Shown here one piece after another: positions 14,657 through 44,269 of a stretch of DNA of 44,379 nt. This DNA comes from Escherichia phage PEC9. The stretch lies in sequence record ON548431.1; one strand, written 5' to 3'. The notes below the pieces were generated by a model. It was not told the origin of the DNA, did not search any database, and worked only from the letters and a program-made list of their open reading frames with translations. How positions within the stretch are numbered: the stretch's first letter is position 1; every line of letters begins with the position of its first letter. The position numbers and the translations under genes were made by a program.

Positions 14657-15382
14657 ATGGGTTATCAACTTCCTAACGGGTCTAGCGTCCAGATTGGGTC
14701 CGTACTGGGCAACGGTATCGCTGTTACGGCAGCTACCAACGCCGCCGCGTCGATCTCTGATCTTACGAAAGGGTGCATTATCACCTGCGCGGCTTCTCAT
14801 GGCTTGAGAGTTGGTGACGTGGTTATGTTCACTAAAACCCCATGGGTCCGTGCGCTGAACCGCGCGTTCATCGTTGGTAAAGTGGCGACTAACGACGTTA
14901 CGCTGGCGCGCTTCGACACCTCGGACGTCACCAAATATCCTGCCGGTGCTTTTGGGGCGGGAACCCCAGGCGAAGTGGTGAAAGTGTCGAATTTTATCGA
15001 CTTCCCGTATATCACTAACGTTGCCGTGTCGGGTGGCGACCAGCAGACCACCACCTTCCAGCCGTTGCAGGTGAATACCGCGATCAGTCTGAACACCACG
15101 AAAAACCCGTTGGTCCAGACCTACACTTTCACCCACGACGAAGAAGACCCGATCCGCCCGATTCTGGAAGACCTGGACGACACACAGAAAACCACTGTGA
15201 TTAAGTTCACCAACCCGGCAGCGGCAAGCGGCAAAGGTGAGATCCGCATTTACCCGGCTAAGGTGTCTTTCCAGAAGATTCCATCGGCTGAGGTAAACAA
15301 CGTGGAGACGGTGGAGTCCACCCTCACTATGCAGTCCGATATGGTTATTTACCGTAAGGACCTGGTTGAAGCGCTGTCGTAA
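14657..15382 (+). CDS. Major tail protein
   Basis: 241 aa, AGGAG RBS, followed by terminator and then the chaperone genes. Confidence 0.6.
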   Translation: MGYQLPNGSSVQIGSVLGNGIAVTAATNAAASISDLTKGCIITCAASHGLRVGDVVMFTKTPWVRALNRAFIVGKVATNDVTLARFDTSDVTKYPAGAFGAGTPGEVVKVSNFIDFPYITNVAVSGGDQQTTTFQPLQVNTAISLNTTKNPLVQTYTFTHDEEDPIRPILEDLDDTQKTTVIKFTNPAAASGKGEIRIYPAKVSFQKIPSAEVNNVETVESTLTMQSDMVIYRKDLVEALS

Positions 15383-15412
15383 TTTGGTCGCTTAAATAGC
15401 GGGTGATAATAT

Positions 15413-15436
15413 GGGGCCAGTACGGCCCTTTTTTTT
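15413..15436 (+). terminator. Rho-independent terminator after major tail gene
   Basis: GGGGCC-N5-GGCCC hairpin followed by eight T. Confidence 0.55.
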
Positions 15437-15452
15437 ATTGGAGAATACGACA

Positions 15453-15815
15453 ATGGCTAAAGCACCACTCTTTACACTCGACCCTAAGCCGACCTTTAAG
15501 CTGCCGATTGAGATCCCGCGCCCTGGTGAGAACGAACCGGGCAAAATGACGTTTACCGTGCGCCACCGCCCTATCGACGAATTTTCGCAGACCATGCAGG
15601 ACACTGAGCGCAAATTGTCGGAGTATGACGACAATGACCCGGAAGGATTTAACGTTATGGTCGAGGCCATCATGCACGTCGCTGAAGGCTGGAATTTGCC
15701 GGACGAATTTAATGCCGCCAACGTCCGCCGCCTGGTGGTCAACTACCCGCGCGCGTTCGGCGTGTTCCATACGTCGTACTACCTCGAATTGATGGGGTTG
15801 CGTGAAAAAAACTAA
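15453..15815 (+). CDS. Tail assembly chaperone (lambda G-like)
   Basis: 120 aa from ATG 15453 (GGAG RBS); acidic; ends at a slippery A-run; sits between major tail and tape-measure genes. Confidence 0.6.
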   Translation: MAKAPLFTLDPKPTFKLPIEIPRPGENEPGKMTFTVRHRPIDEFSQTMQDTERKLSEYDDNDPEGFNVMVEAIMHVAEGWNLPDEFNAANVRRLVVNYPRAFGVFHTSYYLELMGLREKN

Positions 15816-16129
15816 TTGAGGCGGCGCGGCGCTTTTATGGCCCGCCGCCACCCTCCGAAGATTTAGCCGCGAGTTTATGGGGCGCGACACCTGAAGACGT
15901 GTGTCCTCCCGTTGCGCTGTGGCCCGACAACGCGAAGGTAGTCGCAGTCTTCACAGATTGCTCCACGCAATGGCGTACCGGATTCGGGGGCGCATACGGC
16001 ATCGACTACGGCGTACTGGAATGGCTATTTAAGATGCACGGCATCGAAAACGCGCAACGTGCGTTTAAAGATATCAAGCTAATGGAACGCGTTGCGCTGG
16101 ATGAAATGGCGCGGCAGAACCCCGCATAA
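15453..16129 (+). CDS. Tail assembly chaperone frameshift fusion (lambda GT-like), made by -1 slip near 15806-15812
   Basis: Downstream frame is open from 15806 to 16129 but has no ATG or RBS of its own (ORF track starts it at a GTG); slippery heptamer at end of the G-like gene. Confidence 0.5.
15806..15812 (+). other. Programmed -1 ribosomal frameshift slippery site A_AAA_AAC
   Basis: Zero-frame codons gaa aaa aac taa; heptamer fits the X_XXY_YYZ pattern; position matches conserved G/GT frameshift of long-tailed phages. Confidence 0.5.
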
Positions 16130-16133
16130 CGAA

Positions 16134-16450
16134 GCGGGACAGGCGGGACGTCCCGTTTTGTCCCGCCACCATTAAACTGCATATATACTCACTACCAGTG
16201 CATAAACTAAAAGCGGGACAGGGGTGCTGTCCCGATCTGTCCCGCCCCTTAAAAGTGAATAGCTAAGCGGTTTTTCTGCATAAAACAAACGGGACAAAAA
16301 ACGGGACAGACCAGGGGCGGGACAAAGCGGGACAGCACCCTGTCCCTGCCAGTGCTGCCGCGGGTTTTAGCCGATCGGGACAGGCGGGACAAAGCCCAGT
16401 CTTTCAGACTAGACGGGGGTCATTGGCCCCCCTCGTCTGAGACTGAATAA
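16134..16450. repeat. GGGACA-rich iteron-like repeat region with palindromes, ending in a 75-bp structured element
   Basis: About 14 copies of GGGACA(G/A) in both orientations; palindrome GGGACGTCCC; GGGACAG-N5-CTGTCCC units; 16290-16450 is a near-copy of 44109-44269. Confidence 0.7.
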
Positions 16451-16513
16451 GGTTTGTTTTAAATTCGCTGATACAATGACCGACGGCAACTGCATAAAAA
16501 GGGGGACTGCATA

Positions 16514-19159
16514 ATGGCAGATCAGGCAGCGGGCATCACGCTCAAGGCGGACGTCGCGCAAATTAAAACGGCTAATACTGTGCTGGACACATTTGCGCAG
16601 AAATCCGAGAACACAGAACAGAAAGTAAAGAAATTAAACGACACCCTCGGCAAGTCGAAAAAGGTTACTGGCGACGCCGCTGGCGGAATGGAGAAGTTAG
16701 CGACTGAATCGCAGCGTGCCGCCGATGGCATGACGAAACAGGAGCGACTCGCCAGCCGATTAGGCATGTCTACCAAAAACCTGGGATTCGCATCGCGGAA
16801 CGCCGCATTCCAGTTGCAGGATATTGCGGTAACGCTTGAGATGGGTATGCCGGTCCACCGCGTTATGCTTCAGCAGCTACCGCAGCTTACTGGGGCGTTT
16901 GGCGGACTTGGAAACACACTGCGATATGTTGCGGGCTTTCTCGGCCCAGTAGGGATCGGCCTTTCGGCATTAACGGCGACGTTAGGCGTAGGGGTGGCAA
17001 TTACGACCCGCGCAGAGAACCAGGTGGCGGCGCTTAATAAGACGCTGGCGCTATCCGGTAATATTTCAGGCCTCACAGCTAACCAGATCCTTGTGCTGTC
17101 CGAGAACGCCGAGCGCATGGGCGGGTCATTCCGCAAGACGCGTGACACAATCCAGGCGCTGGCGGCGGCGGGTGTGAAAGCGGGTGGTGACTTCGGCGCA
17201 TTGGCTAAGGTAGTTAATGACTTTGCGAAGGTGTCCAGCCAGCCGATCGAGGATGTGGTAGCGGCGGTGGCGAAGCTGTCAACCGACCCCGTTGGCGGAC
17301 TGCGTGCGCTGGCGGATAAGTATCACGTCGTAAACGAAGCGCAGATCCAGCAGGTACAGTCGCTCGTTGATACGGGTCGTGAGACAGACGCAGTTGCGTT
17401 GGCTAACAAAACAGCCGCGGCGTCGTTCACCAGCATGACCAATGAGATCAAGGCGAACATGGGTACGCTTGAGCGGTCGATGAACGTCGTTACATCGGCA
17501 GCTAAGTCTATGTGGGATGCCATCCTGGATGTGGGCCGCGCGCAGTCCTCCAATGAGTCCGAGATGAAAGCGCGCGAATCACTACAGCGCATGACCACGG
17601 CTTACTATGCCGAGATGAAAGCGGTAAACGCTGCCGGTGGAGTGATGACCGAAGCTCAGAAAGCGCGTATTAACATGCTTTATAGCGAACTGGTCGCCCA
17701 GGAGAAAGTAGTGGCGTCGCTCACCCTTCGTAACCGTGCGGAGCGAGACAACGCCCGCGCCGCAGACGAATCCGCAAAGGCGAACGAGGAGGCTAACCGC
17801 ACCGCCCGCGACCGCGCTGCGTTCGAGAAGGAGTACGCAACTAACGCGAAGAAGCGCGCAGACGAGATAGCCCGCCTCAATTTGCTGAATAAGCGCGGCG
17901 TTATTGACGAGAAAGAGCTTGCTGAGGCGGTTAAGCAGGTAAACGAGCGTTACAAAGACCCGGCCCCGAAGAAGGCCGCGGCTGTTCGCGTGGATGCCGG
18001 TATGAAAATGCTGGAAGTCGCACGGAGCGAACTGGCCCAGCTTCGAGAATCAGGCAAACAGATCGAAGCCAACGCATCGACGCAGACCCGCACGCAACGC
18101 GCTCAAGCGGCCCTAAACAAGCTGATCGCCGACAATGAGCAGTTAATCGCTGCGAGCAAAGAAAGAGCGCTAACGGCAGCCGAAAAGCAGCAGATGGTGG
18201 AATTTGGACGCGTGAAGGAAGTGCGCGAGCAGATCGTCGAAGAAGCCAAATTGCTGGACGCGAAAGAGAAGCAGGTTAAGGCGCACGCGCAGATCGATGC
18301 CTTCGTTAAGAACCAGAACGCCGAACTAAAAGCCACCGCGGCGGGCTATGCGCTTTCCACTCGCGAAGCGGCAAACCTGCGCGAAGAATTGCAGCTAATC
18401 GACCGTCTGAAGAGGGTTGGCGCTAACGATACCGATATAGACAAGGCGGTGTCTAAGCTGCGGGAAGTGCAGGAGGCGCAGACCGGCGCTAACGCCTCGC
18501 TATGGGATGGATTCAGTCGCGGGCTTAAGGATAGCGTGGATGAGATGGGTAACGGATATACGCAGATGACGTCACTCACAAAATTCACGTTCAGCGCTAT
18601 GCAGGACACGATGAACGAGTTTTTCGAGACGGGCAAGATTAACGCGAAGGATATGGTCAAATCCATCCTGAGCGAGTTAATCAAGCTGGCTACCTCGCAG
18701 GCGTTCAAGTCGATTGTTAGCGCTTTCGGTGGTGACGGCGGCAAAAACGGATTGTTCGGCGCTATCTTCTCGGGCCTCACTAAGAATGCGGACGGCGGAG
18801 CGTACGCAGGAGGCAATCTGGCGGCCTATTCGGGGAAAGTGGTAAGCCAGCCTACCTTTTTCAGTTATGGCGTCCAGGCGTTCGCTAAGGGCGCAGGATT
18901 GATGGGTGAGGCCGGTCCCGAGGCCATCATGCCTCTGAAGCGCGGGCCGGACGGGAAACTGGGCGTTGCCGCTTCGGGTGCTGGCGGCGGTGGTATGGTC
19001 GTGACGACTAACGTTTACACGGGGACTGGTAAAACGGATACCAGTGTCAGCGGGCCGGACCCCCGTACCGCGCAGGCGTTCGGCAAGCAAATCACCGAGG
19101 CGGTGAAGGCTGAGATCGTGAAAGCGACGAAACCGGGTGGTGTACTTTACAAACGATGA
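16514..19159 (+). CDS. Tail tape measure protein
   Basis: 881 aa, Ala/Gln-rich with long predicted helices, Gly-rich C-terminus; located between chaperone and tail-tip genes. Confidence 0.8.
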   Translation: MADQAAGITLKADVAQIKTANTVLDTFAQKSENTEQKVKKLNDTLGKSKKVTGDAAGGMEKLATESQRAADGMTKQERLASRLGMSTKNLGFASRNAAFQLQDIAVTLEMGMPVHRVMLQQLPQLTGAFGGLGNTLRYVAGFLGPVGIGLSALTATLGVGVAITTRAENQVAALNKTLALSGNISGLTANQILVLSENAERMGGSFRKTRDTIQALAAAGVKAGGDFGALAKVVNDFAKVSSQPIEDVVAAVAKLSTDPVGGLRALADKYHVVNEAQIQQVQSLVDTGRETDAVALANKTAAASFTSMTNEIKANMGTLERSMNVVTSAAKSMWDAILDVGRAQSSNESEMKARESLQRMTTAYYAEMKAVNAAGGVMTEAQKARINMLYSELVAQEKVVASLTLRNRAERDNARAADESAKANEEANRTARDRAAFEKEYATNAKKRADEIARLNLLNKRGVIDEKELAEAVKQVNERYKDPAPKKAAAVRVDAGMKMLEVARSELAQLRESGKQIEANASTQTRTQRAQAALNKLIADNEQLIAASKERALTAAEKQQMVEFGRVKEVREQIVEEAKLLDAKEKQVKAHAQIDAFVKNQNAELKATAAGYALSTREAANLREELQLIDRLKRVGANDTDIDKAVSKLREVQEAQTGANASLWDGFSRGLKDSVDEMGNGYTQMTSLTKFTFSAMQDTMNEFFETGKINAKDMVKSILSELIKLATSQAFKSIVSAFGGDGGKNGLFGAIFSGLTKNADGGAYAGGNLAAYSGKVVSQPTFFSYGVQAFAKGAGLMGEAGPEAIMPLKRGPDGKLGVAASGAGGGGMVVTTNVYTGTGKTDTSVSGPDPRTAQAFGKQITEAVKAEIVKATKPGGVLYKR

Positions 19160-41230: not shown

Positions 41231-41265
41231 AAAAAAAAAAGCGCCGAAGCAAAATGCGACGGCGC
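41231..41265 (-). terminator. Hairpin with A10/T10 tract, terminator-like on minus strand
   Basis: Plus strand: ten A then GCGCCG-N13-CGGCGC; on minus strand hairpin is followed by ten T. Confidence 0.4.
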
Positions 41266-44056: not shown

Positions 44057-44108
44057 CGTGTAGTGTGAATATAATGCATAGTTATGCAATAAAACTGCAT
44101 AAAGTAAG

Positions 44109-44269
44109 CGGGACAAAAAGCGGGACAGACCAGGGGCGGGACAAAGCGGGACAGCACCCCTGTCCCGCCCCGGATGACGCGGCCTGGCGGGGAGCGGGAC
44201 AGGCGGGACAAAGCCCAGTCTTTCAGACTAGACGGGGGTCATTGGCCCCCCTCGTCTGAGACTGAATAA
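44109..44269. repeat. Second copy of the ~160-bp GGGACA-rich structured repeat (last 75 bp identical to 16376-16450)
   Basis: Left part 44109-44165 about 90 percent identical to 16290-16346; 29-bp divergent middle; right part 44195-44269 identical to 16376-16450. Confidence 0.75.

Follow-up and report, generated by a model that had tools for sequence, protein, structure and literature searches.

A predicted programmed −1 frameshift site joining two tail assembly chaperone reading frames in Escherichia phage PEC9

The slippery heptamer of phage lambda gene G is G_GGA_AAG. Lambda proteins G and GT occur at a ratio of about 30:1, which is critical for tail assembly (PMC5009743), and the works on this class cited in that paper include Levin 1993 and Xu, Hendrix and Duda 2004, 2013 and 2014. 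As for the heptamer A_AAA_AAC, insertion sequence IS1 provides a proven case of frameshifting on it in E. coli (PMC4066793). According to E. coli reporters, AAAAAAC yields 0.16% alone, 0.19% with the IS911 stimulators and 0.74% with the IS3 pseudoknot, and the values for AAAAAAG in the same reporters are 0.29%, 4.3%, and 39%, respectively (supplement of PMC4066793). Re-pairing from AAC to AAA is poorly tolerated by bacterial ribosomes (PMC4066793).

The locus described below lies in Escherichia phage PEC9 (record ON548431.1) and carries the same heptamer, A_AAA_AAC. The analysed window of 44,379 nucleotides corresponds approximately to a whole genome of Dhillonvirus, a group of E. coli siphoviruses. 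Judging from sequence comparisons, the site very probably acts as a programmed −1 ribosomal frameshift that would give two tail assembly chaperones from one mRNA.

Gene order and the overlapping reading frames

The genes around the site follow the order of tube protein, Phage_TAC_4, DUF1799 in the −1 frame, and tape measure. The major tail (tube) protein gene occupies positions 14657..15382 of the plus strand (Pfam Phage_tail_3, PF08813, E 2.4e-33; phrog_584, major tail protein, E 2.4e-74), and the tape measure protein gene occupies 16514..19159 of the same strand (Pfam TMP_2, PF06791, E 1.7e-42; Tape_meas_lam_C, E 2.1e-13), with the two ORFs of interest placed between them as in the G/GT arrangement. 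The interval 15400-16520 shows 100% identity to Escherichia phage PEC14 and 85–97% identity to about 150 further Dhillonvirus records. Between the tube gene and G, a consensus scan reports a terminator-like hairpin on the plus strand (15413..15437), which consists of GGGGCC-agtac-GGCCC followed by a run of eight T's; the phage Sazh record has a terminator annotated at the equivalent place. Owing to this hairpin, the chaperone and tape measure genes are probably transcribed less than the tube gene.

The upstream ORF (15453..15815, plus strand) encodes 120 aa followed by TAA and represents a G-like tail assembly chaperone. It matches Pfam Phage_TAC_4 (PF08748) with an E-value of 2.3e-23 and 83.2 bits (cut-off 21.1), and its residues 1-120 align to positions 1-124 of the 124-position profile. 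The PDB sequence search and NCBIfam revealed no relative. Because the 120-aa product fills the Pfam profile end to end, ATG 15453 is the likely start of G, with GGAG located at 15440-15443. An alternative upstream ATG at 15411, used as the G start in the PEC14 record, sits at the terminator-like hairpin, and an identical 363-nt G CDS is annotated in YD-2008.s and Kenya-K19. The last codons of G are CGT, GAA (15804-15806), AAA (15807-15809), and AAC (15810-15812), followed by the stop codon TAA (15813-15815).

In the −1 frame, a TGA (15803-15805) precedes a stretch that stays open from 15806 until the TAA at 16127-16129. Its overlap with G is therefore 10 nt long (15806-15815), i.e. the heptamer together with the stop codon, and since the −1 frame opens at 15806 and G stops at 15815, a shift is possible only within these positions. 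The T segment, which would be translated after the slip (15812..16129, plus strand, 105 aa followed by TAA), matches Pfam DUF1799 (PF08809, E 3e-21), phrog_680, and phrog_17368. The last of these families has 213 positions, of which the N-terminal half matches the G ORF and the C-terminal half matches the −1 ORF; thus, the two parts form a single recorded protein in some phages.

The sequence-only reading of this DNA had counted 106 open −1 codons up to 16129 that lack a start codon and a ribosome binding site of their own, and the count holds when made from CTA 15812 with the stop included. The first ATG, GTG, or TTG in the −1 frame is GTG 15899, which lies inside the conserved domain: the DUF1799 match already starts about 7 codons earlier, at residue 25 of the open frame. 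No Shine-Dalgarno sequence precedes GTG 15899, nor is this codon a conserved start, as relatives have I, L, or V at the aligned position. Comparison with four relatives (L016, L020, L021, and L041) having T segments 60–88% identical to the one here shows protein-level conservation, LIEAARRFYGPPPPSEDLAASLWGATPEDV, over the 30 codons that follow the heptamer. Right after the heptamer this conservation includes LIEAARRFYGPPPP, with substitutions dominated by third positions of the −1 frame. Within the 29 codons before GTG 15899, the differences from L020 at the three codon positions number 5, 4, and 16 (16 of 25 at the third position), and the same comparison gives 11 synonymous vs 5 non-synonymous codon changes. 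The T segment is in the −1 frame at every locus of the IMG/VR and metagenomic set where it was detected. In the locus of JohannBuxtorf_Bas84 (L025, 1554-1922), the −1 frame has 122 codons vs 107, and the C-terminus of T is different or extended.

Several further elements were noted in the window. The non-coding gap of 385 bp between T and the tape measure gene (16130-16513) is densely occupied by CGGGACA/TGTCCCG motifs in both orientations. The window contains 22 copies, 11 of them in this gap, and the expectation for the whole window is 6.5. These motifs form long hairpins in the gap, e.g. one whose 28-nt arms lie at 16222-16249 and 16313-16340. A portion of about 150 bp (16277-16421) recurs at 44092-44240 with a mean column identity of 89% and 7 further motif copies, and the phage jat record has a 'repeat_region' annotated at the place equivalent to the gap. 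It may be guessed that these repeats are regulator binding sites, an origin, or an element related to packaging. The run of ten A's at 41231-41240 was considered as a second slippage site and rejected, being the intergenic T-tail of a minus-strand terminator. It adjoins the GC hairpin GCGCCG...CGGCGC between convergent or divergent ORFs and reads as a rho-independent terminator. The Rfam scan of 15300-16600 reported sub-threshold miRNA-like matches to intergenic hairpins and nothing else.

The slippery heptamer and the downstream hairpin

The heptamer A_AAA_AAC (15806..15812, plus strand) is read directly from the sequence at 15800-15819, gcgtGAAAAAAACTAAttga, where it stands in the X_XXY_YYZ register with AAA in the P site and AAC in the A site of the G frame. 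Both its coordinates and the ORF end gaa aaa aac taa had been given correctly by the sequence-only reading. It is the only in-frame X_XXY_YYZ motif in the G gene. The window has 5 matches of AAAAAAC vs 7.8 expected, so the occurrence of the heptamer alone is within chance, but its position and conservation exceed chance.

Conservation was evaluated on a sample comprising 16 IMG/VR loci, 2 metagenomic relatives of about 60% identity, and 79 loci obtained via a small alignment. The protein search with the 225-aa fusion returned 3 proteins, of which the 2 with about 60% identity supplied usable loci. A part of the IMG/VR set was retrieved by a peptide pattern over the G C-terminus, which biases the amino acids, but not the codon choice. 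GAAAAAAAC followed by a stop codon (TAA or TGA) is present in 46 of the 49 distinct contexts, which cover G relatives of 40–100% identity (about 40% being the lower end). In the Dhillonvirus-like clade, represented by 22 distinct sequences, third-position entropy equals zero at GAA, AAA, and AAC, and the codons before the heptamer (Arg, Leu, Gln, and Gly) vary freely among relatives. The stop codon directly 3′ of the heptamer (15813..15815, plus strand) is TAA here; its adjacency is seen family-wide, and it alternates between TAA and TGA among relatives, either being read as Leu in the −1 frame (CTA or CTG). Two further IMG/VR clades (L043-L047 and L049-L105), comprising phages or prophages that are uncultivated and have G about 40–46% identical, keep GAAAAAAAC followed by TGA or TAA exactly.

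An independent sample was obtained by tblastn of an annotated phage collection, in which 1084 records matched. Ten distant representatives were compared, eight newly taken from this set in addition to Sazh and Penguinator. A_AAA_AAC followed by TAA stands at the G stop of T1-like BIFF, Rtp, Sazh, JakobBernoulli, Pocis76, and eiAU. A Ralstonia phage has G_GGA_AAC with TGA at the same place. As for the remaining representatives, Koroua has A_AAG directly at the G stop, Border_ER3 has A_AAG one codon (3 nt) before it, and Penguinator has A_AAA one codon before it. An in-register motif located in the overlap is thus conserved among relatives, as in the G/GT class. The heptamer had also been described as belonging to a class of eukaryotic viruses and mildly unusual for a phage. 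This remark is half right: the motif is indeed a weak one in bacteria, but its being unusual for a phage is not supported, as IS1 is a proven user and AAAAAAC is reported at chaperone genes of Loki and phiCbK.

The −1-frame TGA before the heptamer is not a part of the signal: it arises from the Arg codon CGT and is absent from relatives having CGC, CGG, or CGA. A sequencing error, with a true run of eight A's and a single ORF, was rejected on the basis of the two-frame layout, which is found in more than 150 independently sequenced phages and also with different heptamers.

The sequence-only reading had suggested searching for a stimulatory structure downstream, and such a search revealed a candidate hairpin at 15820..15849 (plus strand) with an MFE of −22.1 kcal/mol and a z-score of −2.29. 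It is separated from the heptamer by a spacer of 7 nt (15813-15819, UAAUUGA). Its lower stem pairs GGCGGCG (15820-15826) with CGCCGCC (15843-15849), and the upper helix is short and variable. Among 200 dinucleotide shuffles, 6 fold as stably, and the hairpin ranks in the top 0.4% of the 48-nt windows of the genome and in the top 0.8% of GC-matched ones. The seven lower pairs are intact in each of the 10 sequences compared, including the relatives of about 60% identity and Sazh. In Sazh, 2 lower pairs show compensatory changes, C-G and G-C each being replaced by U-A, and L021 and L041 have U-G intermediates. This covariation comes from the Sazh lineage, and 5 of the 7 lower pairs never vary.

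The clearest hairpin signal is provided by the synonymous-site analysis. The block that starts with GAA and ends with the second CCG comprises 15 codons, of which 9 have zero third-position entropy, namely those of the heptamer, the spacer codon ATT, and those of both arms. All five loop codons vary synonymously, as do the codons beyond the stem. Elsewhere, invariance is limited to 5 of about 80 degenerate codons (Fisher p = 6e-6, based on a hand tally of the entropy table). Amino acid constraint explains a part of the stem conservation because the arms encode conserved Ala-Ala and Pro-Pro. Hairpins with an equal spacing of 7 nt and a GGCGG start are also found in eiAU (−22.5 kcal/mol), T1-like phages (−14 to −16 kcal/mol), and the Ralstonia phage (−16 kcal/mol). 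The locus thus combines a spacer within the 5–9 nt range of stimulated −1 frameshifting with a stable structure kept by selection, for which the covariation comes from one lineage. However, the two further IMG/VR clades mentioned above, which have the heptamer and the stop, show no supported hairpin (z-scores of 0.0 and −0.6), and Rtp has a weak downstream hairpin that is not supported; the hairpin is therefore not essential family-wide.

Other stimulators were considered as well. A pseudoknot between GCGCUUU (15829-15835) and GGGGCGC (15879-15885) was rejected, as L020 and L021 have uncompensated changes in both sides, and no conserved pseudoknot partner was found for the hairpin region. A dnaX-type upstream Shine-Dalgarno stimulator about 10 nt 5′ of the heptamer was also discarded: the GGGG at 15794-15797 belongs to a Gly codon that appears as GGA or GGC in close relatives.

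The proposed slip and its alternatives

In the proposed mechanism, most ribosomes would make the 120-aa G and terminate at TAA 15813. A few of them would move one base backward with peptidyl-tRNA-Lys on AAA (15807-15809) and aminoacyl-tRNA-Asn on AAC (15810-15812), after which tRNA-Lys would re-pair with AAA at 15806-15808 and tRNA-Asn with AAA at 15809-15811. Decoding would resume at CTA 15812 and continue through the DUF1799 T segment to 16129. The predicted GT fusion has 225 aa and the junction ...LREKN-LIEAARR.... The sequence-only reading had placed REKK-LIEAARR at the junction, which needs correction: canonical tandem slippage gives REKN-LIEAARR, and the former peptide would require either a P-site-only slip of tRNA-Lys before Asn decoding or an extra A in the mRNA. 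The GC-rich hairpin, 7 nt further on, would be positioned at the mRNA entry channel, where it most likely raises the slip frequency, and a further chance of slipping may come from the stop codon that immediately follows the heptamer. The analogy with lambda gpG/gpGT suggests that the tape measure protein would be coated by G and by the G portion of GT, whose T portion would recruit the tube protein. At the level of sequence, the locus agrees with all expectations of the G/GT chaperone strategy with a low-level fusion product, as put forward by the sequence-only reading.

As for the efficiency, GT is expected to amount to about 1% of G or less, given the weak shifting on A_AAA_AAC in E. coli. 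The G:GT ratio may plausibly approach or exceed 100:1 if the yield is not increased by the hairpin and the adjacent stop, and the amount of GT may be far below the roughly 3% of lambda.

Among the alternatives, the one that survives best also involves the ribosome. In a stop-assisted P-site slip, Asn would be incorporated first, and tRNA-Asn would then move from AAC to AAA with the stop codon in the A site, so that CUA is decoded in competition with the release factor. 'Shifty stop' frameshifting is an established concept, according to references given in PMC5009743. The Dhillonvirus clade, the IMG/VR relatives, and 8 of 10 distant homologues have the stop abutting the motif, and it is one codon later in Border_ER3 and Penguinator; moreover, Koroua has only the tetramer A_AAG, directly before the stop, and A_AAA_AAC performs poorly in reporters that have no adjacent stop. 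This invariant adjacency points to a possible additional chance of slipping, when tRNA-Asn occupies the P site and the A site holds the stop codon. However, the entire heptamer is conserved, including the first three A's, which a P-site-only slip of tRNA-Asn does not need. In addition, the adjacency may merely mark the end of the G domain, and the non-cognate re-pairing of tRNA-Asn on AAA is disfavoured in bacteria (PMC4066793). As the main route, the stop-assisted slip is thus considered unlikely; since both products read REKN-L..., it is inseparable from the tandem slip by sequence.

A broader version of the same idea is a family rule, in which N_NNA_AAC (or A_AAG) with a stop at or within one codon forms a functional unit: a deliberately weak non-cognate Asn slip would compete with the release factor, and termination kinetics, instead of just the heptamer and the hairpin, would set the GT:G ratio. 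This rule is a speculative suggestion that we doubt at present. If true, it would define a stop-coupled −1 frameshift cassette common to Dhillonvirus, Drexlerviridae, Eiauvirus, and Ralstonia phages, with a GT:G ratio perhaps tuned to host physiology.

Transcriptional slippage is a distinctly less probable explanation, and we regard it as very unlikely. RNA polymerase would add one A on the run of seven A's (15805-15811), and the resulting mRNA with eight A's would encode GT with the junction REKK-LIEAARR. The heptamer is indeed embedded in seven A's, one inserted A brings translation into the same downstream frame as a −1 shift, and slipping of bacterial RNA polymerase on A/T runs is known (PMC5009743). 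However, efficient bacterial slippage is documented for 9 A or T (PMC5009743), whereas the run here has 7. Neither a length of about nine nor its conservation is observed, as homologues with the −1 layout have shorter runs: GTAAAAAAC and GCAAAAAAC (six A's), CAAAAG (four A's), and GGGAAAC (three A's). The −1 layout is kept with these shorter runs, and therefore codon-register slippage fits better than dependence on run length. The conserved C, the heptamer register, and the hairpin 7 nt downstream are also features of ribosomal rather than transcriptional recoding.

Finally, the absence of any recoding, in which case T would be a small gene of its own, initiated at GTG 15899 (the 76-aa annotation of PEC14) or elsewhere internally, and the heptamer a coincidence, is hardly credible: although Dhillonvirus GenBank records annotate separate small ORFs at the T region and AAAAAAC is not over-represented in the window, the annotated T starts disagree between records, GTG 15899 has neither a conserved codon nor a Shine-Dalgarno sequence, the DUF1799 match extends upstream of it, protein conservation in the −1 frame reaches back to the heptamer, and relatives of 40% identity, as well as still more distant ones, retain the heptamer, the stop, and the −1 relation. 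Programmed −1 ribosomal frameshifting by tandem slippage is thus the preferred reading of the site.

Annotation and comparison with known systems

The frameshift site is unannotated in the sampled Dhillonvirus records, and its assignment to the known G/GT recoding class is well supported by the sequence evidence. No joined CDS is present among roughly twelve Dhillonvirus records examined in detail, and none is suggested by the feature names in 60 of the 152 matching records. Annotation of the T region is inconsistent among PEC14, YD-2008.s, Bas84, PaulFeyerabend, and EE09 (L001, L002, L025, L026, and L116), where this region is variously represented by 'hypothetical proteins' of 38 to 76 aa with different starts, split into several small ORFs, or omitted. 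In addition, G is often mislabelled as 'tail length tape measure protein' in Dhillonvirus records. The corrected gene model would comprise G (15453-15815) and GT (15453..15812 joined to 15812..16129), with the small 'hypothetical proteins' of the T region in Dhillonvirus records being spurious, and the main value of the site lies in this annotation. The GT protein is expected, by analogy, to be essential for tail assembly. The combination of a weak heptamer, a flush stop, and usually a GGCGG hairpin 7 nt further on would also offer a natural series for the tuning of low-efficiency frameshifting.

In comparison with other chaperone genes, Acinetobacter phage Loki (gp12/gp13) and phiCbK-like phages (gp93/gp94) are also reported to have an AAAAAAC slippery site, which adjoins the stop in Loki; the frameshifts there are predicted only, and the likeness to the site described here concerns the slippery motif alone. 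Colossus, a relative of phiCbK, has GGGAAAC, as does the Ralstonia homologue of the present G. IS1 insA-insB′ shares A_AAA_AAC, the E. coli translation apparatus, and a low-efficiency design. Its product, however, is a transposase fusion and it has no established stimulator, whereas the site in PEC9 has a hairpin and an adjacent stop.

Lambda gpG/gpGT shows the same overall arrangement: the tube and tape measure genes flank the pair, the second ORF lacks its own start and is read in the −1 frame, and G carries the heptamer close to its 3′ end. A low-level fusion is likewise expected here, with the functions assigned by analogy. The families, however, are different, as Phage_TAC_4 and DUF1799 are found here and the lambda G/T family was not detected at this locus. 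In contrast to lambda, A_AAA_AAC abuts the stop in PEC9 and a positioned downstream hairpin is present, and the expected efficiency is lower than the one corresponding to the 30:1 ratio of lambda.

The T1-like phages (Drexlerviridae) Sazh, a Citrobacter phage (CPT_Sazh_046/047), and Hafnia phage Pocis76 (ORF42) have homologous G proteins with 41% and 40% identity, respectively, and the T segment of Sazh is 34% identical to the one here. In both phages A_AAA_AAC is directly followed by TAA, and a 7-nt spacer separates the heptamer from a hairpin starting with GGCGG. The differences are the codon before the heptamer (GTA or GCA, which gives a run of 6 A's vs 7 here), a weaker stem, GGCGGUUU/AAACCGCC (−14 to −16 vs −22 kcal/mol), and another virus family. 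A joined CDS is annotated in both Sazh and Pocis76, with the Sazh product labelled 'Tape measure chaperone frameshift product'. The G/GT strategy predicted for PEC9 is known from long-tailed phages and occurs here in the Phage_TAC_4/DUF1799 family common to T1-like phages, in some records of which the same site is already annotated, and the recoding site is a conventional one that changes no concept.
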